Part shown: in pieces, positions 10,683-53,445 of the stretch | Layout: every line of letters starts with the position of its first letter | Numbering within the stretch: the stretch's first letter is position 1 | NCBI GenBank assembly: GCA_040387495.1 | Contig: JAZKDQ010000014.1 | Span: forward strand, 9,752 to 73,751 | Source: Pseudomonadota bacterium | Lineage (GTDB): Bacteria > Pseudomonadota > Alphaproteobacteria > Paracaedibacterales > CAIOTO01 | Direction: 5' to 3' | DNA: 64,000 nt | The notes under the pieces: model-generated | The model's input: only the letters and a program-made list of their open reading frames with translations | Told to the model about the DNA's origin: nothing | The model's database searches: none | Made by a program: the position numbers and the translations under genes

Positions 10683-11072
10683 ATGAAATTATACTTATTT
10701 GGTTTGAAAGCTATGATTTACTACAAATACATTAAACATATTTCATATTTTATTTTGTTAGTATTAATTGTTCTCTTCTTAAGAATGCAATTTTCAAAAA
10801 ATTTTAATGTAGGTATACACAACGAAACTGAAGTGAAATTTTTAACAGATCCTGCAATGACATCGCAAAATAGAGCAAATATTGCACTAATTATTTTGCA
10901 TCGAAATTCACTGGCTCTTTATCATCGAGATGCAGCTACAGCTGGGATAAAGTTCTTAAATGACAAAAATGTAGCTAATGGAATAAAAAATGCTATTGCT
11001 AGTATTGTTATGCATCGCGTTGAATTAAAGGAACATCACCCGGCTGCGCAGCTGTATATAAATAAGCCATAA
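10683..11072 (+). CDS. Hypothetical membrane-anchored protein with two approximately 38-aa helical repeats
   Basis: VKFLTD...IALIILHR..L..YH.DA / IKFLND...IASIVMHR..L..HH.AA. Confidence 0.55.
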   Translation: MKLYLFGLKAMIYYKYIKHISYFILLVLIVLFLRMQFSKNFNVGIHNETEVKFLTDPAMTSQNRANIALIILHRNSLALYHRDAATAGIKFLNDKNVANGIKNAIASIVMHRVELKEHHPAAQLYINKP

Positions 11073-11145
11073 CGCTTCACGTTTATTTTAATCGTGATTG
11101 AATCACAGTCAACAATCAATAAAACGTCCCACTTTTTTCCTTGCG

Positions 11146-11334
11146 GCTATGCTATCCTTGCCTTATAACCCAAGGATTCATATGTACCGCATCGCGCTTA
11201 AAATGTTGTTTGGTGACAAAGGCAAATACATCAGTATGATTGTGGGTATTTCCTTTTCAACGCTGATCATGACGCAGCAACCATCGATTTTGGTTGGGCT
11301 GTTGTCGCGCACATACAGTTTCATTCGCGATATT
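11146..11334 (+). pseudogene. Truncated copy (B) of the ABC permease 5' end
   Basis: About 185 nt, roughly 89% identical (my manual count) to 12805-12989; homology stops after RTYSFIRD. Confidence 0.92.
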
Positions 11335-11351
11335 TTTACTGCCACATATTT

Positions 11352-12605: not shown

Positions 12606-12837
12606 TTTCAGCTAAGAATTAGATTTTCTATTAAAGGAAGTATATCAAAAAAAGACGTTTTGTAAAATAGATAGTCGTCATTTTATAAAATACAATGACG
12701 CCATTCTGTAAAATTGAAGATGCTGTCGAAATAATAAATAATTCTGCAGTGCTTCTTTTGTGAATACCAAGAAGTAAAAAACTACTGACCTAGTTTTCGT
12801 AACCATGCTATCCTTGGCGCGTAACCCAAGGAATCCC

Positions 12838-13992
12838 ATGTACCGCATCGCGCTTAAAATGTTGTTTGGCGACAAAGGTAAATACGCCAGTATGATTGTG
12901 GGTATTTCCTTTTCAACGCTGATTATGACGCAGCAACCATCAATTTTGGTTGGGTTGTTGTCGCGCACGTACAGCTTTGTCCGTGATGTATCGTTGCCTG
13001 ACATCTGGGTAATGGATAATGGCGTTCAATTCGTAGAAGAAAACAAACCCATACGTGATACTGAACTTGGCCGCGTTCGTGGCATTGATGGCATAGCGTG
13101 GGCAGTGCCATTATACAAAGGACTTATGCGGGCAAAATTACCCGACGGGTCGACAAAAACACTGGATATGACCGGCATTGATGATGCGACACTCATTGCA
13201 GCACCGGCAAATATTCTTCAAGGAAGTCTCTCTGACTTTAGACGCCCTGATGCTGTATTCATTAATAAAGAAGCTGCGGATACCAAGCTTCGCGTGAAAA
13301 TTTCTGAAACCCAAACGCGCCCACTTGCTGTTGGTGATGTGATTGAAATCAACGATAAACGCGCGCAGGTCGTAGGGCTTATCAAAGCAACGCGCAATTT
13401 TGTTTTGCAACCACAAGCTTACACAACATATTCAAGGGCTGTGTCTTATTCAGCGCCTGGCAGACGGCATCTTACGTATATCCTTGTTAAAGTCAAAAAA
13501 GGGGAAGACCCCAAGCAAATCTGCACGCGAATTATACAAAAAACGGGTTTACGCGCACAAACAGCTGATGAATTTGCAGACGCAAATCTTGATTATTGGA
13601 TGCGAAGCACTGGTATATTAATTAATTTTGGCATCTCTGTGTTGCTAGGATTCATTGTCGGAACAGCTGTTGTGGGGCAGACATTCTTTAACTTTGTTCA
13701 GGAAAACATCAAACATTACGCCGTGCTTAAAGCCATGGGGCTGCGAAATCGCGTTTTAGCGAAAATGGTTATGTTACAAGCATGTGTTGTTGGCATCATC
13801 GGATACGGTATTGGTGTTGGGCTTGCTAGCCTGTTTGCCCTGAAATTCCAGGATTCTGTGCTGGCCGTTCGCATGCCGCCTATCCTTTTGCTTTTCTCTG
13901 GTTTAGGTGTTTTGTTAATTATTTTGACAGCAGCAATTATCAGTATTAGACGCGTAATTCGGGTTGACCCGGCGCTTGTGTTTAGGGGCTAA
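12838..13992 (+). CDS. ABC exporter permease (MacB/FtsX/DevC-like)
   Basis: TM1, periplasmic domain and 3 C-terminal TMs, YAVLKAMG, RVDPALVFRG. The ATG at 12838 follows AAGGA (track start 12805). Confidence 0.92.
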   Translation: MYRIALKMLFGDKGKYASMIVGISFSTLIMTQQPSILVGLLSRTYSFVRDVSLPDIWVMDNGVQFVEENKPIRDTELGRVRGIDGIAWAVPLYKGLMRAKLPDGSTKTLDMTGIDDATLIAAPANILQGSLSDFRRPDAVFINKEAADTKLRVKISETQTRPLAVGDVIEINDKRAQVVGLIKATRNFVLQPQAYTTYSRAVSYSAPGRRHLTYILVKVKKGEDPKQICTRIIQKTGLRAQTADEFADANLDYWMRSTGILINFGISVLLGFIVGTAVVGQTFFNFVQENIKHYAVLKAMGLRNRVLAKMVMLQACVVGIIGYGIGVGLASLFALKFQDSVLAVRMPPILLLFSGLGVLLIILTAAIISIRRVIRVDPALVFRG

Positions 13993-37926: not shown

Positions 37927-40524
37927 ATGGTTAAGCGTCTTCTTATCGATGCCACCCACAATGAAGAGGTGCGTGTCGCAGTCGTCAATACTCATTCGCT
38001 GGAAGAATTTGATTCTGAAACAGCGAACAAACGACTCACAAAGAGTAATATTTACCTAGCAAGGGTTGTTCGCGTTGAACCTTCTTTGCAAGCAGCATTT
38101 GTGGAATATAATAACGGGCGACATGGTTTTTTACCGTTTGCCGAAATTCATCCGGATTATTATCGCATTCCGGTTGCTGATCGCAAGATGCTTGAACAAA
38201 GCCTGGCGTTACAAGCTGCAGAGGCTAATGGTGAATTGTCCGGTGATGATGCCCTGGAATCTAATGTAGCAGAAGATGAAAGCACGAAGACTGTATCTGA
38301 ATCTACTGGATTTGAATCCAATGGATTTTCAGAACTCATCGATGATAAGAATCAAGAGAGCCCTGAAGAGAGCGCCAATCAAAACGTGTCAGAGGATGAG
38401 GAATCTGCTGATGTAGATGAGTCTTTGCTTGCAGATCGTCGAGATCAAACAACGGACATTGGTGGTGATTATGCCGTAGGTGCCGATGATCTGTTAGAAC
38501 CAGAGGCAATTGCTAATAATGAAAAACGTAATTTAAGATTCCGTTACAAAATCCAAGAAGTTATCAAACGTCGTCAAATTATGTTGGTGCAAGTTGTTAA
38601 GGAAGAGCGCGGTAATAAAGGCGCAGCGTTAACAACATATCTATCTTTGCCAGGCCGTTATTGCGTATTGATGCCCAATGCTGGTCATCGTGCAGGCGGC
38701 GTATCACGTAAAATTAGTGACAATGATGATCGTCGTCGTTTGCGTAGCCTAATGAAAGAATTCGAAATTCCTGAAGGCATGTCACTTATTGTGCGTACCG
38801 CTGGACAAGAGCGTAACAAATCTGAAATCAAACGCGACTATGAGTACCTGCTGCGTGTGTGGGATGATATTCGTGAAAAGACGATTATTTCCACAGCGCC
38901 TGATCTTGTGTATGCCGAAGGTGATTTAGTCAAACGCGCTATACGTGATATCTATGATCGCGATATCGAAGAAGTTCTGGTTGAAGGTGAAGAAGCCTAC
39001 AAAGCCGCAAAGAATTTCATGAAGAGCCTGATCCCAAGTCATGCTAAAAAAGTAAAATTGTACAAAGACTTGCTGCAGCCAATTTTTCATCGTTTTGGCG
39101 TTGAAGAACAAATTGAGAAAATGCACCAACCTGTTGTGACATTGCCATCCGGTGGATCAATCGTGATCAATCACACCGAAGCCTTAGTTGCAATTGACGT
39201 GAACTCTGGCAAATCCACGCGCGAGCGCAATATTGATGATACGGCTGTTAAAACAAACCTTGAAGCCGCTGCCGAAATTGGTCGTCAGCTTCGCCTTCGT
39301 GATATCGGCGGCATTGTTGTTATCGACTTTATTGATATGCATGATAGCGGCCATATTGCCAATGTTGAACGTAAAGTCCGTGATGCTCTAAAATCCGATC
39401 GTGCGCGCATCCAAGTGGGTCGCATTAGTCAATTTGGTTTATTGGAATTATCACGTCAACGTCTTCGTCCTAGCATGCTTGAAAGCCATTCTATGCCATG
39501 TACGCATTGTAGTGGGACTGGCCTTGTACGCTCTGTTGATTCATTGGCACTGCAAGCATTACGTGAAATTGAACGTACAGTGATTTCAGGCAATGCCTAT
39601 GAGGTTCTTGTGACTGTACCCCTTGGCGTAGATTTGTTCTTGCTCAATCAAAAACGAAACGCAATTGTTGCCATTGAAAATCGTTATGGTGTTGTCATTC
39701 AAATCATTCATGACACAACAATGCTGTCACCAAACTTTGTTGTGGAAGTACTGTCAGAACGCCCACGAACACTTAAAATTGCTGCAAGCACAGTGAATTA
39801 TGATGAAGTGCAACAACCATCTGTTGATGATAGTGATGATGAAGAGTCAGAAGATACGGATACGGATCAAGAAACAACCGACGATGCATCGAGACTTAAG
39901 AAAAAATCACGCCGTCATAACAATCGCCGCCGTCGTAACAATCGCCGCGATCAAGGTGAGGCGGGTGCTGAATTGGCAGAAGGCAGCACAAGTGACGAGA
40001 CGACAAGCACTGAATCTATAGCTAACGAATCTGAATCGACGGAACAAAATACCACAACGAATAGAAGCCCTAGAAGACCAATACATAGGCACGAAAAGAG
40101 AGCTGTTACTGAAGATACAGTAGCTGCATCTGATGCCATTCAACCGAGTGAGAGCGCGTCCGAAGAAACACCTTCTGAAGAAGGGCAAACAGAAAAGCGG
40201 TTTACAAACAATCGTCGTCGTCGTCATCCATACCAACGTCGTCAGCATAATAAAACATATGATAATAAGGCCGATGGTGTGTCAGAGAGACCTCCTTTCG
40301 AACCAAAAATCATTGAACCAAGACTTATTGATGGGACAACACCTACAGCTGCGCCCTCGGTTATTCCAATGAAGCGTGAAGCGTCAAGAGGTCAGCAAGC
40401 TCCACGACCACCACGTGAAAGTGGCAAAGTGGAAGGTGCTGATTCAGCAGCTGCAGTAGCACCTGCTAAAAAGAAAGAGCCAAAACAATCAAAGAGTTGG
40501 TTAAGGCGTTTGTTAGATAATTAA
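37927..40524 (+). CDS. rne: Ribonuclease E
   Basis: RVEPSLQAAFV, acidic S1 insertion, AIDVNSG, IDFIDM, CxxC, Arg-rich disordered tail. Confidence 0.97.
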   Translation: MVKRLLIDATHNEEVRVAVVNTHSLEEFDSETANKRLTKSNIYLARVVRVEPSLQAAFVEYNNGRHGFLPFAEIHPDYYRIPVADRKMLEQSLALQAAEANGELSGDDALESNVAEDESTKTVSESTGFESNGFSELIDDKNQESPEESANQNVSEDEESADVDESLLADRRDQTTDIGGDYAVGADDLLEPEAIANNEKRNLRFRYKIQEVIKRRQIMLVQVVKEERGNKGAALTTYLSLPGRYCVLMPNAGHRAGGVSRKISDNDDRRRLRSLMKEFEIPEGMSLIVRTAGQERNKSEIKRDYEYLLRVWDDIREKTIISTAPDLVYAEGDLVKRAIRDIYDRDIEEVLVEGEEAYKAAKNFMKSLIPSHAKKVKLYKDLLQPIFHRFGVEEQIEKMHQPVVTLPSGGSIVINHTEALVAIDVNSGKSTRERNIDDTAVKTNLEAAAEIGRQLRLRDIGGIVVIDFIDMHDSGHIANVERKVRDALKSDRARIQVGRISQFGLLELSRQRLRPSMLESHSMPCTHCSGTGLVRSVDSLALQALREIERTVISGNAYEVLVTVPLGVDLFLLNQKRNAIVAIENRYGVVIQIIHDTTMLSPNFVVEVLSERPRTLKIAASTVNYDEVQQPSVDDSDDEESEDTDTDQETTDDASRLKKKSRRHNNRRRRNNRRDQGEAGAELAEGSTSDETTSTESIANESESTEQNTTTNRSPRRPIHRHEKRAVTEDTVAASDAIQPSESASEETPSEEGQTEKRFTNNRRRRHPYQRRQHNKTYDNKADGVSERPPFEPKIIEPRLIDGTTPTAAPSVIPMKREASRGQQAPRPPRESGKVEGADSAAAVAPAKKKEPKQSKSWLRRLLDN

Positions 40525-40693
40525 TCCCAACGCTTTCTGTTCATTCGACTTGATCTATATTTCCCTCTGGTCATACCAGAGGGAATTTAATAGAGAGAAT
40601 GTTTTTAAAAGTAATGAATAGCATGCCCCCCTATGACGAGAAACAAATCAGTGGTACAATGATCCTGAAAACTATGCTTGGATACACCCTCTC

Positions 40694-41419
40694 ATGTCAT
40701 TCATACCGTTACTAATTTTTTTTGTCGTCTTAAACACCGCAGCACGTCTTTGCATGGCAGACAGTCAAATAGTACCAATGTCACAGCTTCTTTTAAATAG
40801 TTCCCAAAAACCTCACGAAAAAACATCACTATCTACTGATAAAAAAACGGTGGATAGCAAAACAATAGCTACTGAAAACGCCAACAATAAATCTTTGTCT
40901 AACCCTTTGCGTAAAATAGCAGAGAATGTTAGGGATATGATTGAAGAATACACAAAGCGTCGGAACCTCGCGGAAAAACGTGGGGATCTAAATCGATATG
41001 ATGAATTACTTAAAGACGCCAATGATTTAGCGAAAGAAATCGAAGCTGCATCAAATGAACATGATATGCGCATGGAACAATATCAAAAAGGGGACATTAA
41101 ATCTGGAGAACAAGCGGTTCGTCTCACTGAACTTATTCAAAGCCGCACTGAACCGTTTAATTCACTTTTATGGCGGATGGATCAGGTAATTGCTGAAATT
41201 AAACATGATGATACAACCATGCCGGAACGCACTGCGTATGAAGGAATTCCTCCAACATCCAAATTAGTGCCCTTGACATCGCGCACACAACAAGAAGAGC
41301 CCCTCTCAACAAAGCGCAAATTATGCGATGACGAGGAAGAGGACGAAGTTATACAGAAGCATAAATCTCTCCAGCCATTAAAAACAAAAGATGAAGACCT
41401 GGAGAATATGGGGGCTTAG
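40694..41419 (+). CDS. Secreted coiled-coil hypothetical protein
   Basis: Signal peptide, helical core, KRK followed by an acidic patch. Confidence 0.7.
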   Translation: MSFIPLLIFFVVLNTAARLCMADSQIVPMSQLLLNSSQKPHEKTSLSTDKKTVDSKTIATENANNKSLSNPLRKIAENVRDMIEEYTKRRNLAEKRGDLNRYDELLKDANDLAKEIEAASNEHDMRMEQYQKGDIKSGEQAVRLTELIQSRTEPFNSLLWRMDQVIAEIKHDDTTMPERTAYEGIPPTSKLVPLTSRTQQEEPLSTKRKLCDDEEEDEVIQKHKSLQPLKTKDEDLENMGA

Positions 41420-41670
41420 GTGCCCGTCGACGAAGTATAACCGCTCAATAATAGCTTGAAGGCAATCAAGGATCAGAGCGTTTCCTGCCCTACTGCAAAT
41501 CACCTCTTAGCTTTACTTCGACTCCCCGCCAGCGCCTTGATTATGACGTAGCTTTGACGAATTTGAAAGATTATGCCGTGGCGTGTGATTGGTGGATCCA
41601 GAAAAATATGACCTTATGGTCCGACGTATGAAAACTGAGAAAAGTATCGAAGATCAACGCCATAATCAAA

Positions 41671-42414
41671 TCATAGGGAAGTAGCTATATTAGTCCGCAG
41701 CGCATTCAGTGTATCAACCGTCGACAAATCACACCACGCACCATCAAAAACGTGCCCTGCTAACCGGCCATTAGCCTCGGCAATATCAAAACAATCTTTA
41801 AACGAAAAACAAACCCCTTTGGTTGGCTGGAGAATATCTGCACAACGACGCATAAAAGCTGGCATAACAACGCGGTGCCCAATAAACACATAAGGGGCTG
41901 ACAGGCCGTTGGGGCGATAATCAAGTTGTTTGTCTGTTAATTCGTAATCTCCTGCTCCAATGAAGGCAATTCCATTGCTTTTGGCGCCGATACTAAGCAA
42001 CATATCCTCAGCATCTGAGTTAAAATTGGCAAGCATATTCAAACCCAATTGATCCGCAGAATCCCCCTCAATATACGTGTCACTACTAACGACAAAAACA
42101 GGAGCATCTCTTTCAAAATGCGGCAGTGCGTAGATGAATCCACCGCCTGTTTCAAGGGGTTCAGGCTCTCGGCTAACAATGACATTGGGATAATTGGTGT
42201 GCACAAAATCTTCAATCACATCCGCTAAATGAAAAGCATTCACAACAATGCGATCTATCTTTTGCCGGTGCAAACGATCAAGCACAAGGCTGAGGCAAGT
42301 CGTGCCATCATCCATGATGGATAGCAAAGGCTTTGGTGTATCACGTGTGAGAGGCAGCAATCGCGACCCTAAACCAGCCGCCATCACCATCGCTTGTTTT
42401 GGGTGTTGGGTCAT
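41671..42414 (-). CDS. murU: Nucleotidyltransferase, MurU-like
   Basis: AMVMAAGLGSRLLPLT..TPKPL, LETGGG; ATGA overlap with the upstream kinase. Confidence 0.8.
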   Translation of the reverse strand: MTQHPKQAMVMAAGLGSRLLPLTRDTPKPLLSIMDDGTTCLSLVLDRLHRQKIDRIVVNAFHLADVIEDFVHTNYPNVIVSREPEPLETGGGFIYALPHFERDAPVFVVSSDTYIEGDSADQLGLNMLANFNSDAEDMLLSIGAKSNGIAFIGAGDYELTDKQLDYRPNGLSAPYVFIGHRVVMPAFMRRCADILQPTKGVCFSFKDCFDIAEANGRLAGHVFDGAWCDLSTVDTLNALRTNIATSL

Positions 42415-43523
42415 TGTGTTTTTTCTTTTCCCTTTTGCACCACCGCATGCTGAGCTGACAATGGAAAATACTCTGCAAACCAACGGGCAATCGGTGCAAA
42501 AAGCGGGTCTTTAAAGTGCTGCTCTAGATAGCGCCACAACCTCGGCAAATGTTCACATTTCGAATCATTATGTTGACGAAGCGCATAACGGGTAAAGACA
42601 CCAATCACTTTCACATGACGCCCGGCACCCAGTACTTTCGCTGTAATTTCTAATGCCTCATGCTGTTCTTTCGGATAAGCAGACAAAAATTGCTGAGAGC
42701 ATTGATGAACAACGTCAGGCGAAACATCGCGGCGCGCGTCCTCTAGTAATGAAACAAAGTCATATACCACCGACCCCCATAACGCATCTTGGAAATCCAA
42801 TACGCCGCAGGTTTTAACAGATAAGGGCTTTTCAATAATCATTAAATTATCAACATGAAAATCACGCAATACAACGGTTTTTGGTGTGCGGGGCAGGGCA
42901 TTAAACAAATCTTCCCACAATGCCATAAATGGTTTCTTTGCGATCGCTGGTGCTTGCACACCCTTTGCGTATGGCCAATACCAGTCAATGAACACTTCGA
43001 CTTCGGCGAGCAATTTTACGGTTGTATACTCTTCGATCACCATAGGACGCGGGCAATTTTTTAATGATTGCAAGATTTGTGTCGCCGTGTGGTAAAGACG
43101 TTTTTCAATTGTTTCTTTAATAGCATCACTTTTGACCGCTGCCGCATCAATAACACGTGTAAACGTTTTATCACCAAAATCTTCTAAAAGAACAAAACCA
43201 TTTTCTTCGTCAAACCCCAAAATCTTTGGCGCACGCACCCCTTGTTTTGTTAAATAATCCGCCATTAGAACAAACTGTGTGGGCTTTTCAGGGGCAGGGG
43301 CATCCATCACGACATACGATTGCGTGCCGACTTGCAAACGATAGTACTGACGATTCGACATGTCTTTGGCAAAAGGACTAAGCTTGCCAATCAACCCTTG
43401 TTGATGAATGAATGCCTTAAGCAACGTGAAACGGCTGGTGTGCGCGATTTCCAGTGCTGGCATTGGCGATATGGCTGAATCGTTTACTAATGTTTCTTTT
43501 GTCGATTTTATTTGTTGTTTCAT
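42411..43523 (-). CDS. amgK: Aminoglycoside-phosphotransferase-family anomeric MurNAc/GlcNAc kinase, AmgK-like
   Basis: DMSNRQYYR, LLEDFGD, RDFHVDNL, LDFQDA; coupled to murU. Confidence 0.8.
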   Translation of the reverse strand: MKQQIKSTKETLVNDSAISPMPALEIAHTSRFTLLKAFIHQQGLIGKLSPFAKDMSNRQYYRLQVGTQSYVVMDAPAPEKPTQFVLMADYLTKQGVRAPKILGFDEENGFVLLEDFGDKTFTRVIDAAAVKSDAIKETIEKRLYHTATQILQSLKNCPRPMVIEEYTTVKLLAEVEVFIDWYWPYAKGVQAPAIAKKPFMALWEDLFNALPRTPKTVVLRDFHVDNLMIIEKPLSVKTCGVLDFQDALWGSVVYDFVSLLEDARRDVSPDVVHQCSQQFLSAYPKEQHEALEITAKVLGAGRHVKVIGVFTRYALRQHNDSKCEHLPRLWRYLEQHFKDPLFAPIARWFAEYFPLSAQHAVVQKGKEKTQ

Positions 43524-43530
43524 CGTTATT

Positions 43531-43655
43531 ATACCATTTTCAGAAATGATTAGGCTGTGAGGCCTCAAGATTTAAGCAGCAGAGTTTACTGAAGCACACT
43601 CGCCGCACAGATATCGCCGAGGGCTGCACTAACTGATTATTAATGAAATTGGTAT
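43531..43655. mobile_element. About 125-bp MITE/RPE-like element with imperfect terminal inverted repeats
   Basis: ataccattttcagaaatgattag ... ctgattattaatgaaattggtat (18/23 match by eye), GC-rich core. Confidence 0.65.
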
Positions 43656-43660
43656 TAATT

Positions 43661-43732
43661 ACACTAAACTCTCACTTTTGATCATCTACAGTATTGATAG
43701 ATATGTCAATTCGATTATTGAGTAAATGGCCT
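43661..43732 (-). pseudogene. Remnant 3' end of tsaE
   Basis: Translates GHLLNNRIDISINTVDDQK*EFSV versus intact TsaE GPYLPKNRIDIHINTIDEHSRELII. Confidence 0.75.
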
Positions 43733-44007
43733 GTATCCCCCCGTGTGAGGGGATAATAGAAAAAAGGAATTATTAATTTGGCTCTTATGCAGATTAAGTG
43801 GGTAACCTTTATCAGACCTAAAAATGTATCATCCTCGGGTTTGATGCAAGGATCTATATAGGTTTAAAGGCAAGCACTAAGTGTGACTTGACAAGCTAGA
43901 TGCCACTTCGATGATAGATATTATCGTGTCAAGCGATAATACACTGGGAGCAAGGATTGTACATACCCACTCGTTTCCTACAAGAGCCATTGATTTTTTA
44001 GGTATAG

Positions 44008-44697
44008 TTATTCAGCATCATTTTCTAGGTACAATTTTTTTTGTTCTTTTTCACGTTTCCTGCGGTCATTTTCTAAAATCCGCTGATCAGCCTTTTTAAT
44101 CAAGATTTTTATAAACTGTTCGTATGCAAATTTCTGACCAATATCTTCTTTGTAATCGTCAAAACGGGAGCAAACCTCATTTATTTCGTTTTTGTACGTT
44201 TCTGAATCAATTTTTTGATCTGTTACTAAATACGTCCGTCGTTTCTTCTTAATTTTTTCAATAGTTTCGGTGGTCCAAAGGTTATTAACAGTAATTTTTG
44301 CTAGGTCCCCCTTAATGCTTTTTATTAACCAGTTTGCAAAGAAATGTGGACCACATTGTAGATGATAGTGGTAGTAAAATTTGCATTTCCTCTTGCTAGC
44401 CAGGATTGCAGATTCTTCTGTCTCATCTCTGTGTGATTGTGTGGCTAATATTTCATAGGATCGATGAATGTCGTTATATTCTTCTTTAACTTTCGCACGT
44501 TTATACTGCTTAGTATCAAAAATTATTACTGAACGAGCAGGATTAAATCTTGAACCTTGGACTTGCTCCTCATATGCACTCATCGTCCGTTTAAAAGGCA
44601 ATTGGACTTGCTCCCCACCCGACTCCCCATCCGAACCCATCGCCAGGTTAAAAGGAAAAAGCGCCAAAAAAGCTATAATTTTAATATTTTTAATCAT
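44008..44697 (-). CDS. Secreted protein, FPFNLAM-leader family member 3
   Basis: MIKNIKIIAFLALFPFNLAMGSD leader; Lys/Arg-rich body. Confidence 0.8.
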   Translation of the reverse strand: MIKNIKIIAFLALFPFNLAMGSDGESGGEQVQLPFKRTMSAYEEQVQGSRFNPARSVIIFDTKQYKRAKVKEEYNDIHRSYEILATQSHRDETEESAILASKRKCKFYYHYHLQCGPHFFANWLIKSIKGDLAKITVNNLWTTETIEKIKKKRRTYLVTDQKIDSETYKNEINEVCSRFDDYKEDIGQKFAYEQFIKILIKKADQRILENDRRKREKEQKKLYLENDAE

Positions 44698-44801
44698 TAT
44701 TTATATCCTGATATATTTTGATTATTGGGTGAATGAACTATATCCCCCCGGTTTGGGGGGATTACAGATAGAATTGAATTGGGGAAAAAGTGTGTTTTAA
44801 T

Positions 44802-45602
44802 TTATTTTACATTATTTGTGGATAATTCAGTTAAAGTATTTGCAGCTTGAGTTATTTCAAAGGCAATGATTAAAGGCCTAATATATTTATCATATTTAAC
44901 ATCAAAAGTGAGAAGCAAGCTTTGAAGATTCCTAAGATGCAGACATGGAGTTTCATTATAATATTCATACAACGAAAATATTACATGATTCCTAAATTCT
45001 AGCCTAATATCATCGATAGGACTTTCTGAATTAATTTCGCGCTTTATTAATTCGTCTGCAATTTGCAGGGAATTTCTTGCAGGATCATAGTGCCATAAAA
45101 AATTTTTCCAGGTCCTTTTACCTGAATTTGTGGATAATTCAGTTGAAGCATTTGCGACTTGAGTTATTTCATAGGCAATGATTAAAGGCCTAATATATTT
45201 ATCATATTTAACATCAAAAGTGAGAAGCAAGCTTTGAAGATTCCTAAGATGCAGACATGGAGTTTCATTATAATATTCATACAACGAAAATATTACATGA
45301 TTCCTAAATTCTAGCCTAATATCATCGATAGGACTTTCTGAATTAATTTCGCGCTTTATTAATTCGTCTGCAATTTGCAGGGAATTTCTTGCAGGATCAT
45401 AGTGCCATAAAAAATTTTTCCAGGTCCTTCCTCCTGAATCATTCAACATGTCTACTGCTGTTATTGGGAGCATAGGCAGCATAACAGTTTCAGATGGAGC
45501 AGAATTAAATCTTGAATCTTGGTCTTGTTGTCCATCCGAACTCATCGCCAGATTAAATGGAAAAAGTGCTAAAATTGCAATAATTTTAATATTCTTATTC
45601 AT
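44802..45602 (-). CDS. Secreted protein, FPFNLAM-leader family member 2, with a 104-aa internal duplication
   Basis: MNKNIKIIAILALFPFNLAMSSD leader (start reassigned to 45602). Confidence 0.8.
   Translation of the reverse strand: MNKNIKIIAILALFPFNLAMSSDGQQDQDSRFNSAPSETVMLPMLPITAVDMLNDSGGRTWKNFLWHYDPARNSLQIADELIKREINSESPIDDIRLEFRNHVIFSLYEYYNETPCLHLRNLQSLLLTFDVKYDKYIRPLIIAYEITQVANASTELSTNSGKRTWKNFLWHYDPARNSLQIADELIKREINSESPIDDIRLEFRNHVIFSLYEYYNETPCLHLRNLQSLLLTFDVKYDKYIRPLIIAFEITQAANTLTELSTNNVK
44814..45427. repeat. 312-bp near-perfect tandem direct repeat
   Basis: ccaggtcc at 45108 and 45420; the units are identical except near one end. Confidence 0.95.
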
Positions 45603-45680
45603 TGTTAACATCCTGATATACATATAATTACACAAAAAGATAATTTTATTTTTAAATAAAATTATCTTGATTTGTACGTA

Positions 45681-45703
45681 CATAACTAATTTCAACCTGT
45701 CAA
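45681..45703 (-). promoter_or_regulatory. Repeated promoter cassette (also at 46600-46622, partial at 49668-49683)
   Basis: Identical TTGACAGGTTGAAATTAGTTATG on the minus strand. Confidence 0.75.
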
Positions 45704-45789
45704 CGAAAGATTTAAGTATTTTCAACCTCAAAGAGAAAATCATTTGAATCTGTGCTGCACATTAGTCGATGTTTAGGAGAGAAGAATTT

Positions 45790-46509
45790 CTAATAAGTAA
45801 ATCTATGTGCTTTAGCTTTTTTAGCTTTTATTTTCTTAATTTTTTTAGCCTTTAATTTAGCTTTAACTTTTGCCTTTGCTTTTTTATTAGCATTATTAAT
45901 GGAAACTTTATGCATATCGCAGGCAGTGAAAAGAATTCTATTAATTTGGCTCTCATAAGTCGCTGGATCTTTTTTATTTTTTTTCATCAATGCATGTAGA
46001 TAACTTTTGCATACATGCTTAAATTTTTCAGGATTGAGTTTGATTGCATTAATTCTTACTTCTATTAAAAATTCATTCAATGATAATAAGTTTACAGCAA
46101 GATGTTCTATGTAATAAACCCCTCGATTACTAAAAATACCACTAAGTAGAGCTTCTTCTCCATTTGATAACTTGCTTAGTTTACCAATATTCCTTTTGTC
46201 AAATTCTAATTCTTTGTATTTTTCAAGACTATCACGTCGTACAGGGGACTTAGGTTCTGGCTCTGCAAAATGCACAGACTTTTTAGGCTTTGACTCTGAA
46301 ATTGTGTGTTTTTCTGGTTCTTGTGTTAACTCTGGCCTCACAATGACATCATTGCGTTCAACTATACTACCACGTCGTTCACGTTTAAATTCAGAGTAAG
46401 ATGGCCTGCACATCATATTAGGTTCTAGATTTACATCCCTATCTGCGCTCATGGCCAGGTTAAACGGAAAAAGAAAGCAGGAAGTTATCGAAATTATTTT
46501 TTTATTCAT
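45790..46509 (-). CDS. Secreted protein, FPFNLAM-leader family member 1, with RVxF-like motif and polybasic tail
   Basis: MNKKIISITSCFLFPFNLAMSAD; KKSVHF; KKAKAKVKAKLKAKKIKKIKAKK. Confidence 0.8.
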   Translation of the reverse strand: MNKKIISITSCFLFPFNLAMSADRDVNLEPNMMCRPSYSEFKRERRGSIVERNDVIVRPELTQEPEKHTISESKPKKSVHFAEPEPKSPVRRDSLEKYKELEFDKRNIGKLSKLSNGEEALLSGIFSNRGVYYIEHLAVNLLSLNEFLIEVRINAIKLNPEKFKHVCKSYLHALMKKNKKDPATYESQINRILFTACDMHKVSINNANKKAKAKVKAKLKAKKIKKIKAKKAKAHRFTY

Positions 46510-46787
46510 TATTTACATCCATATATACATATAATTATACAAAATTAAAAAAATTACTTTGTTTATTTTTAAGTAAAATTGTTTTAACGTGCAAAAATAC
46601 ATAACTAATTTCAACCTGTCAATGAAAAATAGAGATTACTTCAACCTATTGGTGAAAATATAACGTGTTTTTTTATGATTTAATGAATTGTGGATTTGCC
46701 GTTGAAATTTTATGAACCCTGAGATTACGGCATAACAACTTCTGGGGATAACACTTAAATTCAGTCGTTGTTACTTCTACTTATTTT

Positions 46788-47814
46788 TTACTTCCTTACT
46801 CCACCAGTAAATGAAAAGTCAGCAGCAGGTATTTTTCCCTGCGTAATTTCCATTTTCTTAGGCAACGTATATATAGGCTTATGGCTCTCTGTTGGATCAG
46901 CATGAGCAGAATTACTTTCCTGATTCGCTTGATGTTACACGTGTGTTAGACATTGATGCTTTTTTAAGTATGTTAGCATAAGGGTTAGGTTTACTTTCTG
47001 TAGACGAAACGGGCAGTTTGACATAAGAAGAGGCTTTTAAACTTTTCCGTGAATTATTTATCATATCTAACAAAATTGGTTCTGCATTTTTTTGTGAATT
47101 ATTTCCTTTAATGTTATTAACAACAAGCTGTCGTATTGTTTTTTCTTCTGGAGCTATTTCTAAAGTGCCGAAGTTCTGAGTGACACTTAAGCTGAGACTC
47201 GTCTTCGCTTTTGCTTCTGTCGTATCTGCTTTTTTTAGTAGAGAACCCGCTTTAATAGCATCCAAGAAAGATGGTCGCATTGTTGTTTCCGCACTTTTTA
47301 CAGGCTGTTGTGTTGTCTTTTTTTCAGGGACTATTTTTTCTGAGGAAACGAGTTTCTGAGTGAAACTTAAGCTAAGATTCGCATTCGCTGTCGTTTCTGC
47401 AATATCAGCTTTTTTTAACTGGGGACGCACGCTAATATCATTCAAGAATGACGGTCGAGCTCTTGAGTTAGATGTCGTGCTAGCTCTCTCTGTCGCTTTG
47501 GTGGATGCAAAACTATCTCTATCTGTTGCTCCACTGTCTGTAGATGCAAAACTGTATCTGCCATCATGGGGGGTGCTAAGTAAATCATGCGATGGAGTAA
47601 TTTGATTTTCTGTTTGAGCGTTTACTTCTGTGTCATCTGGTTCTTGATAGTCTAAATAAATGATTTTTTCTTGGGTAGAGGTGTGACTGATTTTTGCTGG
47701 GGCATAGGAATTACCTATTCCTAGTTTTTTTCTCATGTTATCTAGTGAATAAGCATTATTTGATAAAAAACATAAACTGATACTAAATATTGATAATTGT
47801 AGTATGATTTTCAT
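46788..47814 (-). CDS. Secreted multi-WH2-like protein, frameshifted near the C-terminus
   Basis: RPSFLDAIKAGSLLKKA and RPSFLNDISVRPQLKKA. The ORF stops at 46912, but a shifted frame to 46788 matches the paralog's C-terminus. Confidence 0.75.
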
Positions 47815-47847
47815 TTTAAAACTCACTTTCATTAGGTTTAAGCATTA

Positions 47848-47965
47848 TTAAAATCTATATGCGACACCAATCATTATTCCATGATCAGAATACGACGCAT
47901 TATCAAACCCAGAAGTTTGTGATTTATTACTATTTATTGAAATATTTTTACCTGGATTATATATA
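47848..47965 (-). pseudogene. Duplicated 3' fragment of the outer-membrane beta-barrel gene
   Basis: YNPGKNI...SGFDNASYSDHGIMIGVAYRF versus YNPGKKI...SGYANASYSDHRLMIGVAYKF. Confidence 0.88.
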
Positions 47966-48131
47966 TTCACTGCGGAATATGATTTGATCACATGAACCAA
48001 AGGATAGCGTAAATGCACCTTATTCTTGTTTTTCAATGATTTAACACTTCACGCGTTTGTCTTTTGAATTTTATAAATCCCCGGAGCGCGGCATAACCAC
48101 ATCCGGGGGTAATACTTGATTTCAGTTGCTG

Positions 48132-48794
48132 TTATTTTTTACTATCATTTGGTGTTACAGGTGCGGAAATAAGATTTTTACTAACCAGCCTTTGTCCACC
48201 AACGAATCGAATTTCTTCATCGTGTAGTTTTTGATTAATTGCTTCCGTTTTGATGGACGGTTCTTTTGTAAGTTTATGTCTAGCTGTTATATTGGTGCCA
48301 GAGGCAGAATCATCCTCCACACTGCTACTTGACGTTATAGACGTGTTGTTATTATGTAAATCATCGTAACTATAAGTATAAGAAGAAGAAGGCCGTTTTT
48401 TTAAACTCATACGTGCCATTTGCAAGGCAGTTGGTTCTACCTTCTTTTCAAGAATTTGCGCTGTGTTCTCTTTGGAAACTATTTTTAAAGAAGCAAGCTG
48501 CTGAGTAATACTTAAGCTTGAGTCCACCACCGAAACTGGCAATTGTTCGGATTGAGATGAGACAGACGCGATGGATGTTCTATCTGTTACACCGGATGAA
48601 AAACTGTCTCTTTCGCTTTCCTCGTTTTTTGGCGGAGCGGGACGTGTTGGTGGGGGGGGTTGTCTTTGTGTGACGACAAGTTTTGGCGGACTTCCCCTTA
48701 ATTCATCTCTAGCAGCACTACCCATTGAACAAGCATTTGTTGCGATAAAACTTACACAAACGCTAAGCGTTGATAATTGTAATATATTTTTCAT
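48132..48794 (-). CDS. Secreted proline-rich, single WH2-like protein (paralog of the 47814 gene)
   Basis: MKNILQLS leader, QPPPPTRPAPP, TALQMARMSLKKR, shared SLS.TQ motif. Confidence 0.75.
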   Translation of the reverse strand: MKNILQLSTLSVCVSFIATNACSMGSAARDELRGSPPKLVVTQRQPPPPTRPAPPKNEESERDSFSSGVTDRTSIASVSSQSEQLPVSVVDSSLSITQQLASLKIVSKENTAQILEKKVEPTALQMARMSLKKRPSSSYTYSYDDLHNNNTSITSSSSVEDDSASGTNITARHKLTKEPSIKTEAINQKLHDEEIRFVGGQRLVSKNLISAPVTPNDSKK

Positions 48795-48825
48795 TTTAGA
48801 TTTACTTCCTTTAGATTTAATATTT

Positions 48826-49572
48826 TTAAAATTTATACGCAACGCCAATCATCAGACGATGATCAGAGTACGATGCATTGGCATATCCAGAAATATGTCC
48901 ATCGTCAGTAGGTATGAAAATCTTTTTACCTGGGTTATAACTATATTCGCCGCGTACTAAAATACGGCCAAGTGCTTTTTCGTAACCAAAAGCTGGCGTA
49001 AAGACAATATTTGTTTTACGAACAGACTCAGAAACCGATACGTTCCTATCAGGTCTTACACTGTTGGTTCCATTGTATGTTACCGTAGCCTGATCTCGGC
49101 TAACCTCAAATCCTGGCTTAATATAAATCAAATTATTACCAAAAACGTAACCGAACCGCGGCGCAACACCAAAAGCAATTCCGCGTTTATTTTTTATTTT
49201 TGCCTCATAATGTTGCTCGGAATGTATAGGATCTGCATTATTTAATAAATTAATATGTCGATTAGCAAAATCACCTAAAATTGATAATTCACCCCCAACA
49301 TAAAAGTTATTCAAATTTTTGCCATAACCTGCATATAAGCCCAAAAGTAATCCATTTGATGTGTTATTTGTGTTAAAATGCATCCCTATACTTTTTAGGA
49401 AACCTGCAGTATTCATGAGATCATTAGTTGTTTCATTCACTTCTGTTTTTGTTTTACTTCTGACACCTCCCGCGCCTGCACCCACATAGAAACCATTAAA
49501 CCCCGTTGATGTCGCGTTTGCTGTAATTGAGACCGCAGCCATAACGGTGGACACTAATAATAACTTTTTCAT
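48826..49572 (-). CDS. Outer-membrane beta-barrel protein (Omp25/surface-antigen-like)
   Basis: Signal peptide, FNGFYVGAGAG, amphipathic strands, terminal VAYKF. Confidence 0.9.
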   Translation of the reverse strand: MKKLLLVSTVMAAVSITANATSTGFNGFYVGAGAGGVRSKTKTEVNETTNDLMNTAGFLKSIGMHFNTNNTSNGLLLGLYAGYGKNLNNFYVGGELSILGDFANRHINLLNNADPIHSEQHYEAKIKNKRGIAFGVAPRFGYVFGNNLIYIKPGFEVSRDQATVTYNGTNSVRPDRNVSVSESVRKTNIVFTPAFGYEKALGRILVRGEYSYNPGKKIFIPTDDGHISGYANASYSDHRLMIGVAYKF

Positions 49573-49884
49573 AATAAATACCTTTCATATATTTATGTTA
49601 AAATATATACATTTGTTTAAATTAATGTATAAACTTCTTTGTTTGATAAAAATTTGGTTTATTATATTAATTTCAACCTGTCATTTAATACAAAATACTT
49701 TTCATGCATTTAAAACATGAATTAATCACATGTAAAGTCAAACTTTCATATTAACTACTTTACATATACAACAAACCTTCCTCTCAATGTCAATAACACT
49801 AGGCTTATATTTCGGTTGAAATAATTTGGATTTATCGCATCTGTAAATATTAAGTAAAATGGCTCTAGATAATTTTGGGATACG

Positions 49885-50319
49885 TTATAATGAGCTCTTG
49901 ATAATAAGCTCTCGACTGTGCTCGTCGATTGTATTGATGTGGATATCAATTCGGTTTTTGGGTAGGTACGGCCCCATGCGCTCTGGCCATTCGATAAAAC
50001 AAAGGTGTGTGTGCAGCGCTTCGATCAGGCCAAGTTCCAAGCATTCATCCGGAGACGTCAATCGATATAAATCACAATGCCAAAGTGTGCCTTTAGGTAA
50101 GGTGTATTCCTGCACCAATGTGAATGTTGGACTGGGCACAATTAAATCAAGATCGCCCGCAAAGGCTTGGATCACCCGCCGGATAAACGTAGTTTTACCA
50201 GCCCCAAGGTCACCCCATAAAGCAACAATCCCAGTAGGTGGAAGCGTTTTTGCAAAGCTGTCTGCGAAGGCAAGCAATTCTGGTTCGGTCAATTGGTGCG
50301 TCATAGTACTATTCGTCAT
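49885..50319 (-). CDS. tsaE: tRNA t6A biosynthesis ATPase TsaE
   Basis: GDLGAGKTT, VPSPTFTLVQEY, HCDLYRL, IEWPE. Confidence 0.97.
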   Translation of the reverse strand: MTNSTMTHQLTEPELLAFADSFAKTLPPTGIVALWGDLGAGKTTFIRRVIQAFAGDLDLIVPSPTFTLVQEYTLPKGTLWHCDLYRLTSPDECLELGLIEALHTHLCFIEWPERMGPYLPKNRIDIHINTIDEHSRELIIKSSL

Positions 50320-50322
50320 GAA

Positions 50323-50649
50323 TCAAAACCCAAAACAATACGCTAAAATGAAAAACCCAATGGAAATCACAAAGCTTTTCGCAAGGGACGACGTGTTCCA
50401 CATAATCACAGCAGCAAGACTAAGCGTCATTACACAAATAGCAAATATGGTAACGTAGTGCGACGACGTTTTTGGAATTTCTCGAAAAGCCACCGTATAG
50501 ATAACCTCACCTGTAATAAGACAAATGGTGTAATCCAAAAACTTATTCAGCTTTGGATAATCATTTAACTTACTGATGTGTTTAATAAATGCAGGGGACG
50601 CCCTTAAAAGAAAAGATGTCAGGCCAGCCGTTGCTATCATTTTCCACAT
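50323..50649 (-). CDS. AzlD-like small membrane protein
   Basis: Overlaps the azlC-like gene end; T..LR..P motif; 3-4 TMs. Confidence 0.65.
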   Translation of the reverse strand: MWKMIATAGLTSFLLRASPAFIKHISKLNDYPKLNKFLDYTICLITGEVIYTVAFREIPKTSSHYVTIFAICVMTLSLAAVIMWNTSSLAKSFVISIGFFILAYCFGF

Positions 50650-51329
50650 AATGCATCCTTTATTCGGTCTTCTATATGCACACATACAAAGGCGATCAAA
50701 AACCATGCTAAAATAAGTAATTGTTTACTAATATACATTTCTAAAAGAGGTGTCGCAAGAATGCCTAATAACGATATTGCAAGGATCATTGGCTCGGCTT
50801 TGCGCTTTACAATCAAACAAATAAAGTGCGTTGGCAACACGATATGCGCAAGCCCGTTTAAAAATTTTCGGCAATCCAGCACAGCATCCCATGCCATGTG
50901 GCCAACAATCGTAAATACAATTGCCACGATATAAGCAGCAATGACGACGCCCATATAAAAGCTCCATGGGTCTTTTACATTTTTTTGCGTCGAACAAACC
51001 AAATAAGCACTACTGCACATAAAATACAACGCGGGGACTTTTAATCGCTTGCCCTGATTCCAAAGAGGGATCGCCATGGCTGACATTAATACAAATTTAA
51101 AATTGAGAACGAATATATTTAAAGCAAGAACCCATAACGATAAGTCTTTATTTTCCATGAGAAACACTTGCGCAGGGCCAGCAAAAACGGTCGCCGTCAA
51201 AGTAGCTGATTCTAACAACGTTAAGCCATGGGAATTTGCGAGTAATCCTAGGGATGAAAATAGCAATGTAAATGCCACACAAATAGGGATTGATCCATAA
51301 AGGCCATCTGTGAAGCTTTTTTTATCCAT
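50637..51329 (-). CDS. AzlC-family branched-chain amino acid exporter permease
   Basis: F..GL..SIPI, VFAGPAQ, LNFKFVLMS. Confidence 0.85.
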   Translation of the reverse strand: MDKKSFTDGLYGSIPICVAFTLLFSSLGLLANSHGLTLLESATLTATVFAGPAQVFLMENKDLSLWVLALNIFVLNFKFVLMSAMAIPLWNQGKRLKVPALYFMCSSAYLVCSTQKNVKDPWSFYMGVVIAAYIVAIVFTIVGHMAWDAVLDCRKFLNGLAHIVLPTHFICLIVKRKAEPMILAISLLGILATPLLEMYISKQLLILAWFLIAFVCVHIEDRIKDALCGK

Positions 51330-51450
51330 TATGGATTCTCATGCAGGGTTATTATGATATTATATAGTGCAACTATTGTTTAAAAAATAGCAAGAATGAA
51401 TCGATTTTTTGGATGATTTTGTAAAATCATCCTACATTATTTATCGATTT

Positions 51451-52431
51451 CTAACTCAATGATATTATAAGTTCCTGAATTGCAGAAGCAGCTAGTATGC
51501 GATACTCGCTCATTGCACCATAAGATTGTAAACGAGTGATATAACTTTGCAATTTAGAAATAATAAACACTTTTTCTTGGGGAGATGTTCGAACAGAATA
51601 TCGTTTGGAAATACCCTCCGCATCAGGCAGAAGCTTTATCTTAATTTTTTTTAATTTATTGCGGTTTTCTGACTTCAAAACTGCTTCAATTGGTTTAGGT
51701 ACTTCGTCCAAGTATTGAGCTTCAATCTCACCAAAAAACATAGCTGGATAATCAAGACGGGTAGCATGATCTGGATCTACTGCATAATGTTCTACACTGT
51801 CTAACATAAACATGGCATCTCTGTCATTTTCACCCATAGCTCTTACATATATACCATAATTGGGGTTGCAGCCATCGTCATCCGGGTATCCTTCGACCAT
51901 GCCTAACAAAAATTCTATAATATAGAAAAGGCCTCCGCCATGAGAAATATCTTGAATTTCTTGGGGTTCTATGTCTAATTTCTTATCATAAGAGCGTCTC
52001 GGTAATGATTTTTTTGTTTCCTGTATCTTATCCCCATTTTCCGCACTAACTGACCGCTTTTTAAGTTCTTTCACCTTCATACTTTTTAATACCGTTACAA
52101 TGTCAGATGCAATTTCTTCTATTTCTTTTTCTTCTTGAAATTTTTGCGCGATTTTACGAATATCACTGCGTTTGTACTTTTCTGACACTGCAAATATTTT
52201 TTCACGAGCCATCTCCTTTAGGAGGGGCCTATCACCATCAGAAGCAGCCTTATCAATATCTTCAAAAATTTTTTCACTATTGTTTAAAAAATTCTCAATT
52301 TTTTCAGCTCTTGTGTAGCCTGGCAAAATAGACCTATCAAGTTCCAAATCACAATCTAAGTGGCTTTCGCTCGCAAAAGTTGACACTGATATCATAGAAA
52401 TAAATATTATTGATTTAAACATGCTTTTCAT
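51451..52431 (-). CDS. Secreted protein, possible ADP-ribosyltransferase-fold effector
   Basis: Signal peptide; SHGGG..YI..FL.G..EGY, GIYV, DYPA...GEIEA.YL, IEAVL. Confidence 0.5.
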   Translation of the reverse strand: MKSMFKSIIFISMISVSTFASESHLDCDLELDRSILPGYTRAEKIENFLNNSEKIFEDIDKAASDGDRPLLKEMAREKIFAVSEKYKRSDIRKIAQKFQEEKEIEEIASDIVTVLKSMKVKELKKRSVSAENGDKIQETKKSLPRRSYDKKLDIEPQEIQDISHGGGLFYIIEFLLGMVEGYPDDDGCNPNYGIYVRAMGENDRDAMFMLDSVEHYAVDPDHATRLDYPAMFFGEIEAQYLDEVPKPIEAVLKSENRNKLKKIKIKLLPDAEGISKRYSVRTSPQEKVFIISKLQSYITRLQSYGAMSEYRILAASAIQELIISLS

Positions 52432-52734
52432 TGAATTAAACCTTATGTTTTATATATTAAAAATGAATTAATAAATTATATATAATCACATAAATCTAAA
52501 ATTTCAATACCCATTAAAAAAATATGTTGTAAAAAACATCTTGTTCGCGTTACTATAAACTAGGTTCGGATGATAAAAAACTAAATTGGGTTTAACTTAC
52601 CCGTTATCATTCTTGAGAATCCTGTAATAGGATCACCTTACATAGCCATTAAAAATAAAAATATTAATTTTTAAAATAGCTAAGAATACCCCGTAAATAA
52701 TAGTGTAAAACCTTAACCTAAGCGAATTGTTATA

Positions 52735-53445
52735 TTGATGATTAAACGTAATCGACCACGTCCTAATAATGGTGGCATGCGCCCACACCGCCCACACCAA
52801 AATGGTTATTCTTCGAATCCAAATTTAAAGAATGACGACAGCTCTGAGGTTCGCCTTAAGAACCGTGGTTATTATCAGCAAATGTATGATAAATACTCCA
52901 CCGCCGCACGTGAATCGTTGAGCCTTGGCGAACGTATCGAAGCCGAAGGACACTTTCAACACGCTGAGCATTACTTGCGTCAATTGAATGATCGCATCCG
53001 TTATGATAACGAGGCGCAGCAACAGCAGCAGCAACGGTTCCAAGCGCAGCAAGCACAACAGCATGCTCAGTTACTTGCACAGCAAAATCAACAAGCAGCT
53101 CAGGCACAACAAGCGCAAACACAGCCTGATCAATCACAACAAGCGCAAACACAGCCTGCTCAGCCACAACCAACTCAGCCACAAGCTCCCAAGCCACAAC
53201 ACGTTCATCGCAGGCCTACGGTTAAAGCTGCTCAGCCTTCCGTTGCAAGCGACGCTACTGAACACAACGGTGCAACGTTGGAGGGTGATGTAAATCCAGA
53301 TGCTCCAGTACAAGAAAAGCGCCCTTACCGTAAGCGTGTATTGCGCACACCGCACAGAAGGCACACCCCACAAGACGGCGCATCACAAAGCGCAACGCCA
53401 AGTGCTGCTCAAAGCGCACCACAAAACGATTCGGTAACATCATGA
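52735..53445 (+). CDS. DUF4167 family protein with Gln/Pro-rich tail
   Basis: RG..QQMYDKY...ARE....G.RI.AE...QHAEHYLR. Confidence 0.85.
   Translation: MMIKRNRPRPNNGGMRPHRPHQNGYSSNPNLKNDDSSEVRLKNRGYYQQMYDKYSTAARESLSLGERIEAEGHFQHAEHYLRQLNDRIRYDNEAQQQQQQRFQAQQAQQHAQLLAQQNQQAAQAQQAQTQPDQSQQAQTQPAQPQPTQPQAPKPQHVHRRPTVKAAQPSVASDATEHNGATLEGDVNPDAPVQEKRPYRKRVLRTPHRRHTPQDGASQSATPSAAQSAPQNDSVTS

Follow-up and report, generated by a model that had tools for sequence, protein, structure and literature searches.

A relic of the tsaE gene end upstream of an amgK-like gene, and similar gene-end relics elsewhere, in a draft genome of the Paracaedibacterales

Organization of the tsaE-amgK region

The 64,000-nt stretch analyzed here (the window, G000:C14:9752-73751) belongs to a draft genome of 1.66 Mb in 20 contigs (G000; assembly GCA_040387495.1). 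Its minus strand carries, in this order, azlC, azlD, tsaE, six open reading frames (ORFs), a short tsaE-like stretch, a 121-nt repeat and the genes of an AmgK-like kinase and a MurU-like nucleotidyltransferase (Table 1). The subject of this work is the tsaE-like stretch, a relic of the tsaE 3' end that lies 6 kb away from the intact gene and next to amgK. Five genomes of the same genus (G001-G005), a genome of the sister genus (G009) and a genome of another family of the same order (G037) were used for comparison. The two downstream genes are named AmgK-like and MurU-like because the scores for their best families stayed below the NCBIfam equivalog cut-offs (for MurU, 102 vs 370 and 94 vs 250 bits). 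The probable amgK start is the ATG at 43523 (MKQQIKS), in agreement with the G001 orthologue.

Table 1. Features of the tsaE-amgK region (window coordinates) and further loci of the same kind (contig coordinates)
Feature	Position	Strand	Remarks
MurU-like nucleotidyltransferase	41671..42414	-	Pfam NTP_transferase E=5.3e-14; ATG overlaps amgK stop (ATGA)
AmgK-like kinase (APH family)	42411..43523	-	Pfam APH E=6.8e-23; NCBIfam AmgK 183 bits vs cut-off 500
Dispersed short repeat, 121-nt copy	43532..43652	.	between relic and amgK start; gap there in G001 (blastn)
tsaE relic, last ~24 codons	43661-43732	-	in-frame TGA at 43674-43672; upstream of AmgK-like gene
Promoter-like TTGACA-17-GATGAT	43681..43709	-	inside relic; consensus scan, 10/12 matches
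Junction piece (5' relic part and short G+C hairpin)	43710..43752	.	repeated at 44717-44759, upstream of i229; D11, 77%
i229	44008..44697	-	orphan; signal-peptide-like N-terminus with FPFNLAM
i313	44802..45602	-	likely start MNKNIKII; two ~300-nt units 98% alike, 44814-45113 and 45126-45425
i239	45790..46509	-	third member of FPFNLAM signal-peptide family
i306	46912..47814	-	orphan; two WH2-like motifs (RPSFL..I....LKK)
Outer-membrane-protein (OMP) gene 3' relic	47848..47966	-	ends in NASYSDHGIMIGVAYRF and a stop; last ~37 codons; tblastn 62% over 37 aa, E=1.7e-8
i238	48132..48794	-	paralogue of i306
omp248	48826..49572	-	multi-copy outer-membrane-protein family; paralogues 50%, 45%, 41% on contigs C18 and C3
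Intact tsaE	49885-50319	-	144 aa; Pfam TsaE E=2.1e-34, 118.7 bits vs 26.6; TIGR00150 105.1 bits vs cut-off 60.1
Six further G000 loci	C1:28550-31167, C1:154288-155666, C1:248444-252339, C14:95469-99446, C17:32606-33858, C4:48956-50862		

Read on the minus strand (43732-43661), the relic gives GHLLNNRIDISINTVDDQK followed by a stop, and the tail of intact tsaE MGPYLPKNRIDIHINTIDEHSRELIIKSSL followed by a stop. In G000 the relic was the best non-self tblastn match genome-wide, with a marginal E-value of 0.08 (3e-4 within the island). For a restricted test, the last 45 aa of each species' own tsaE were compared with the 300 nt upstream of amgK and the score was set against 2000 shuffles. The G000 score of 59 was reached by 0/2000 shuffles (shuffle maximum 45). 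G001 scored 72 (shuffle maximum 40), G003 46 (44) and G002 43 (39), so that the alignment exceeded all 2000 shuffles in four of the five species, G004 being the exception (see below). In G005 no relic was seen in the 249 nt upstream of amgK that the contig end leaves. A pattern search of metagenome contigs yielded one further instance, L089, with RIDISVNTVDDQHKMFIL directly before an amgK. The other two of the three contigs returned by the degenerate relic pattern (L088 and L090) were chance matches without amgK. By these alignments, the stretch is a true homologue of the tsaE 3' end. The initial annotation, which had placed the end of intact tsaE at 49885 and a diverged copy of about 24 codons with a stop at 43661-43732, was thus confirmed by the shuffle test and the sister species.

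Chance similarity, or an assembly artefact joining two strain variants, was weighed at this point. The match is marginal within G000 alone, the genome is a 20-contig draft, and the runs that contain the stretch are recorded as watershed and peat metagenomes. Against this, four species with separate assemblies and one further metagenome contig all have the relic in the same position. In run X1, Logan contigs match 43300-44890 and 45400-50400 without a single difference, so both borders were independently assembled, within the limit that X1 may itself be the source sample. The only part left unbridged by Logan contigs is a 312-nt tandem repeat inside the cargo gene i313. Chance or artefact is therefore scarcely credible as an explanation.

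Ancestral arrangement and age of the split

Outside the genus, tsaE and amgK were adjacent in 20 of the 28 genomes examined and lay 1.9 kb apart in one further genome, G037. A candidate start in the amgK frame was located at or before the tsaE stop (-137 to +1) in 18 of the 20 adjacent loci, all these starts being candidates. In the sister genus (G009), tsaE, amgK and murU are still contiguous. In G001-G004, tsaE and amgK were located on separate contigs, and tsaE was not found in G005. The linkage described as conserved in the initial annotation is borne out by these counts, which support contiguity of tsaE-amgK(-murU) as ancestral to this order. The G001 relic lies directly against the amgK ATG, and in G002 the relic frame ends in TAA 2 nt before the ATG. 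Because of these two cases and the ancestral adjacency or overlap, the relic is placed exactly at the former native tsaE end.

Identity between relics (0.59-0.81) was higher than between a relic and any intact tail (0.34-0.64). Relics showed no excess similarity to the tsaE tail of their own genome over those of other genomes, which argues that gene conversion was not at work. In a 60-column tree the relics of G000, G001 and G003 grouped at 85/87 and all relics fell on one side of a weakly supported branch (70/58), in line with a single origin. By this comparison, the split is older than the separation of at least four species and younger than that from the sister genus. Which of the two 3' ends is native had been raised in the initial annotation: the relic would be the native one.

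The amgK-murU link, an ATGA overlap in G000, is also broken in G001 (L035, L070) and G003 (L031, L071). No amgK 3' relic was present upstream of murU in G001 and G003. Positions 1-160 of G001 L035 consist of a short tandem repeat with a period of ~24 nt, just upstream of the relic at the contig start. This repeat probably explains the G001 assembly break at the relic.

Content of the gap and its local growth

The six ORFs between relic and tsaE are all located on the minus strand. GC content was 0.342 compared to 0.393 for the genome, a value that ranks within the bottom 0.4% of 3085 windows, each 6.3 kb long. All six N-termini were signal-peptide-like (best 12-aa hydropathy 2.0-2.4 vs <=1.41 in three cytosolic controls) by a hydropathy heuristic made for this analysis, which is not a signal-peptide predictor. 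A Pfam scan of the six ORFs detected no integrase and no other mobility domain, and with Pfam and NCBIfam nothing scored above the cut-offs. The initial annotation had described AT-rich, co-oriented, secreted-type cargo without integrase, and this description holds. Its term "effector" is unproven, the cargo consisting of orphan proteins with signal-peptide-like N-termini.

Both small cargo families were found only here within the G000 genome. For i306, 4 distant homologues besides itself were found among 5.8 billion proteins. Its WH2-like motifs, RPSFLNDISVRPQLKKA and RPSFLDAIKAGSLLKKA, are conserved in the four metagenomic homologues and scored below the Pfam WH2 gathering score (E=0.007, 16.5 bits vs 23.1), and the protein may be a secreted actin-binding protein. 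An ESM Atlas search with i313 gave no usable match. For omp248 no close orthologue was found in G001-G005 (best 48%), and there was a weak match to Rickettsia Adr (E=0.002).

Four repeat families (D2, D3, D5 and D11) were recorded within the stretch. A 5' untranslated region with signal peptide is present in three copies (i229, i313 and i239) at a spacing of ~905 nt (D2), and i313 contains the 312-nt repeat, 98% alike. The junction piece recurs at 44717-44759, from which a tandem duplication with one end inside the relic is deduced. The alignment of the OMP relic continues through the intergenic spacer into the signal peptide of the next gene and thereby marks this relic as the product of a whole-unit duplication. 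A repeat running into the following gene, as expected of tandem segmental duplication, was thus found for the OMP relic with i238/i306 and for i229/i313/i239. It was not found for the tsaE relic, and the island holds no relic of amgK, murU or a flanking gene. Codon-position differences of the OMP relic were [6,8,15].

The DNA adjoining tsaE and that adjoining the relic differ in each species of the genus. After tsaE, G002 has an ORF that resembles triose-phosphate isomerase by its first residues alone, and G003 and G004 have different ORFs with hydrophobic N-termini. An FPFNLAM-family member beside the relic is shared only with G003. Of the island DNA, G001-G005 contain hardly anything apart from the relic, copies of two dispersed short repeats, the 5' region of i239 in the case of G003, and a few other short fragments. 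Among the genus mates the island was not present or absent as one unit: the relic is shared and the border DNA is unrelated. The single 6-kb island bounded by a repeat, as proposed in the initial annotation, does not fit a split that predates at least four species, different DNA at both borders in each of them, and growth by tandem duplication. As judged from these comparisons, the 6 kb are not one imported island, and most of the G000 content arose through local tandem duplication.

Constraint on the relic and a candidate promoter

Relic identity was compared with identity at four-fold sites of amgK, tsaE and azlC. For G000-G001 the values were 55/68 (0.81) and 130/259 (0.50), for G000-G003 48/67 (0.72) and 105/242 (0.43), and for G000-G002 41/64 (0.64) and 60/187 (0.32). 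Fisher p ranged from 3e-6 to 3e-5; the relic has changed more slowly than synonymous sites. The relics are conserved even better than the intact tails. Given the stop codons within them and the lack of a start codon, the constraint is not one on a coding sequence.

Two blocks, ATTGACAT and TGTnGATGATCA, are invariant in four species. Both hexamers of the promoter-like site inside the relic (Table 1) coincide with them, and in G001 the site is located ~30 nt before the amgK ATG. At the same positions the intact tails have TTGATA or worse, and GACGAG or similar. Once the operon had been cut, the relic probably came to serve as the promoter of amgK.

Recurrence of the pattern

In G037 an intact tsaE is followed by a 1663-nt insert (one 471-aa gene on the other strand), a 205-nt repeat (95% identical) and an intact amgK. 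The repeat comprises the last ~55 tsaE codons and the first ~17 amgK codons, the amgK ATG lying 38 nt before the tsaE stop. In four of four sister genomes of G037 the site was empty, with tsaE and amgK contiguous. On this comparison, G037 represents an independent and recent split of the same junction. A 29-nt motif, AACTAGCGTATTTTTACGGTATTGCAAAA, is located ~100-170 nt upstream of the inserted gene (L072 6967-7015). At a similar distance it was also found upstream of at least five other G037 genes with signal-peptide-like N-termini (L074-L078), and it may act as a common regulatory site.

When G000 was compared with itself, 78 local direct-repeat pairs were obtained, many of them plain tandem paralogues. 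ORFs were mapped around 15 pairs picked for high identity. Six loci outside the window (Table 1) consist of an intact housekeeping-gene 3' end, an insert of 0.9-3.6 kb and an end fragment (78-318 nt, 81-100% identical). The target genes encode a Na:dicarboxylate symporter, MutL, cytochrome b561, a TLC ATP/ADP transporter (three copies), TypA/BipA and PmbA/TldD. Cargo included two Sel1-repeat proteins, a toxin-antitoxin-like pair, an IS30-like gene with an MFS transporter, and orphans with signal-peptide-like N-termini (judged by eye). No integrase was detected among the 23 target, flanking and cargo ORFs scanned at these loci. High-identity source copies of the inserts elsewhere in G000 were not found, and the 18 junctions shared no motif beyond AT-rich 7-8-mers. 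In most of the eight other-locus junctions listed, the repeat ends within ~10 nt of the stop codon.

An intact end, foreign DNA and a displaced end in the same orientation joined to native DNA, the topology of additive recombination, were accordingly found here, in G037 and at no fewer than six other loci. Replacement of gene ends as a general route, proposed in the initial annotation, is supported by these loci and by the allele-like differences described next.

Codon-position differences between relics and intact ends

If a spare copy decays, changes are expected to spread evenly over the codon positions. Relic and intact copy differed at positions 1, 2 and 3 by 3, 3 and 30 changes for the dicarboxylate symporter, 4, 2 and 21 for PmbA/TldD, 5, 4 and 17 for cytochrome b561, and 2, 0 and 7 for G037 tsaE. 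All seven recent pairs together gave 23, 16 and 95. Thus 95 of 134 differences (71%) were at third positions (p=8e-19 against one third; p=7e-7 against 0.5), and 96 were synonymous vs 38 that were not. Because the differences are mostly third-position and synonymous, relic and intact copy would have diverged while both were coding, as alleles of two lineages. It would follow that the intact end came with the insert and that the relic is the resident end. A search of metagenome contigs for the resident-type allele of the dicarboxylate-symporter relic gave 0 matches. For tsaE of the genus, consensus relic and consensus intact tail differed by [3,3,12], and relic-relic differences were even over codon positions. 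This makes the two-allele reading suggestive for the genus.

These counts bear on a duplication in place, in which ~70-200 nt of the tsaE/amgK overlap would have been doubled (as a small tandem duplication or a long target duplication during insertion) and the genes thereby uncoupled, with unrelated DNA inserted simultaneously or afterwards and the spare copy beside amgK left to decay. Tandem duplications are demonstrably active in the same stretch, overlapping genes can be viably separated only if the overlap is duplicated, and in G037 the two repeat copies match the nearest sister equally well (80.8% and 81.3%). With 71% of differences at third positions, however, the selected copy would need to have changed far faster than the free one, and the lack of an amgK or murU relic inside the island likewise speaks against this course, which is considered unlikely.

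Proposed origin of the relic

The arrangement is best explained, and this is held with moderate confidence, by homology-anchored additive recombination that would have displaced the tsaE end, the relic being native and later kept as a promoter. In the ancestor of the genus, tsaE and amgK would have overlapped or abutted, an arrangement still found across most of the order. DNA arriving from a diverged relative would have paired within the conserved housekeeping gene, and its far, non-homologous end would have joined illegitimately inside the resident copy of the same gene, as in homology-facilitated illegitimate recombination (HFIR, "end displacement" type). No site-specific integrase would be required. 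New DNA and a complete, slightly different tsaE 3' end would have been put behind tsaE, and the resident last ~25-30 codons would have been pushed downstream, still joined to amgK. The relic would then have been retained, probably as supplier of the amgK promoter. The gap would thereby have become a free zone in which each species replaced the content independently. In G000 it was filled, and it grew, through tandem duplication involving two families of orphan secreted proteins and a paralogue of an outer-membrane protein.

Genomic islands at tRNA and tmRNA genes are flanked by a direct repeat of the gene 3' end, depend on an integrase and reuse few RNA-gene targets. Unlike at such islands, a tRNA search of the window found none, and an Rfam search of 40000-53000 at a permissive threshold gave one chance-level tmRNA match and nothing else. 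An integrase could have acted on tsaE itself: an attP site with a mimic of the tsaE 3' end would have integrated into the gene, and integrase and original cargo would later have been lost. The same topology would result, with an insert-supplied intact end and the native relic at the far border. A direct repeat of the target 3' end is found at both borders, repeats end at or near the stop in most of the eight junctions, as a gene-end mimic predicts, and the stretch is AT-rich. Against this origin, neither in nor beside the site was an integrase found in G000, G001, G002, G003, G004 or G037; in the sister species and G037 this was judged by inspection of ORF listings, among which the G037 insert gene alone was Pfam-scanned. 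A separate specificity would be needed for each of the seven or more target genes of this one genome, inserts are as small as 0.9-1.7 kb with one cargo gene, and the junctions share no common core. The G000 genome has one weak Phage_integrase (tyrosine-recombinase) match (28.4 bits, contig C15) and a sole Resolvase-family gene (113.5 bits) at G000:C14:76261-76698, ~2.5 kb beyond the right end of the window. An integrase island is regarded as distinctly unlikely. Homology-anchored import is preferred because targets are many, inserts tiny, recombinases and core motifs missing, and RecA (486 bits) and ComEC (203 bits) present in G000.

Several points weigh against displacement by homology-anchored recombination. 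The relic was undetected in G004, where 119/2000 shuffles reached the score of the restricted test. In G012 (L027) a 304-aa ORF lies between tsaE and amgK and a tsaE relic was undetected, so the junction can open without a footprint. The two-allele reading for the genus rests on 18 consensus differences, a number to which stem-branch changes of the selected copy contribute, and an in-place duplication with a long stem branch after it and a constrained relic could yield [3,3,12] as well. An integrase-borne mimic of the gene end would account for the third-position bias just as well. The other G000 loci were seen in a single assembly. As to the promoter, the site is a consensus match from a scan that gave 5 sites per 700 nt vs 2.3 expected by chance, and no consistent site for a pre-existing internal promoter was found in 20 outgroup tsaE tails. 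Detection of relics favours conserved ones, which inflates the apparent constraint.

Relation to known systems and significance

A close likeness is the prophage e14 at icd/icdC of Escherichia coli K-12. According to PMC13626634 (citing Hill et al. 1989), the insert supplies the icd 3' end, the displaced native C-terminal fragment is a pseudogene at the far border, and the two icd ends differ mainly by synonymous changes. The loci share with e14 a gene running into inserted DNA and a native end displaced to the far border. They differ from e14, which has its own site-specific recombination system and excises, by the lack of an integrase, many targets, very small inserts and no sign of excision.

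At rhs and type VI secretion system (T6SS) effector-immunity loci, C-terminal displacement via HFIR is described in PMC5361080, the reference list of which includes Jackson 2009, de Vries & Wackernagel 2002, Prudhomme 2002 and Meier & Wackernagel 2003. A conserved anchor, an illegitimate other end and old 3' ends shifted downstream into orphan arrays are common to those loci and the present ones. The counterpart of such a pile-up would be the three copies at the TLC transporter locus and the three at the FtsX permease locus (see below). The rhs/T6SS anchor is a conserved toxin-gene core and the new tip encodes a different toxin. Here, in contrast, housekeeping genes serve as anchors, what comes in is an allele of the same end, and separate cargo genes make up the new content.

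In the open-access literature, no published account of housekeeping-gene end relics flanking cargo was found. Housekeeping anchors, an allelic displaced end, genome-wide spread, secreted-protein cargo and one relic apparently turned promoter set the present loci apart from the known cases. How host-associated bacteria without integrases and plasmids gain secreted proteins is poorly understood. Recombinase-free gene-end displacement is tentatively put forward, at somewhat less than even confidence, as the main entry route for secreted-protein genes in this order of small-genome Alphaproteobacteria, each event leaving behind a datable remnant of the resident end that could later be recruited as a promoter. 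If this were true, relics across the genome would record gene gains together with their timing. G000 has at least eight footprints of one and the same process, and another family has one more at the same junction; anchor gene, incoming DNA and rough timing can be read from the sequence. The locus also illustrates that an overlapping gene pair can be separated without loss of either gene, a pseudogene fragment seemingly being kept as promoter. The codon-position test of relic against intact end is simple and could be used on any genome for telling imported gene ends from in-place duplicates.

Further repeats in the window

Three further copies of the dispersed short repeat between relic and amgK (~85-120 nt) are present in G000; G001 gave 10 matches to it, G003 gave 15, and G002 a single partial one. 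The copy at 43532-43652 gave no Rfam match. One G003 copy is located directly after the tsaE stop.

Window positions 10397-12987 contain three copies of the 5' end of a gene for an FtsX-type ABC permease (10397-10496, 11146-11331 and the intact gene from 12805). The region at 10.4-13 kb had been taken as a companion case of gene-end replacement in the initial annotation; it duplicates a 5' end and not a 3' end, in three copies. These start at the ATG and are arranged serially, separated by a 129-aa ORF and a DUF4143/AAA_14 ATPase gene on the other strand. Adjoining the permease relics, positions 8729-10114 encode a 461-aa leucine-rich-repeat protein with a signal-peptide-like N-terminus.

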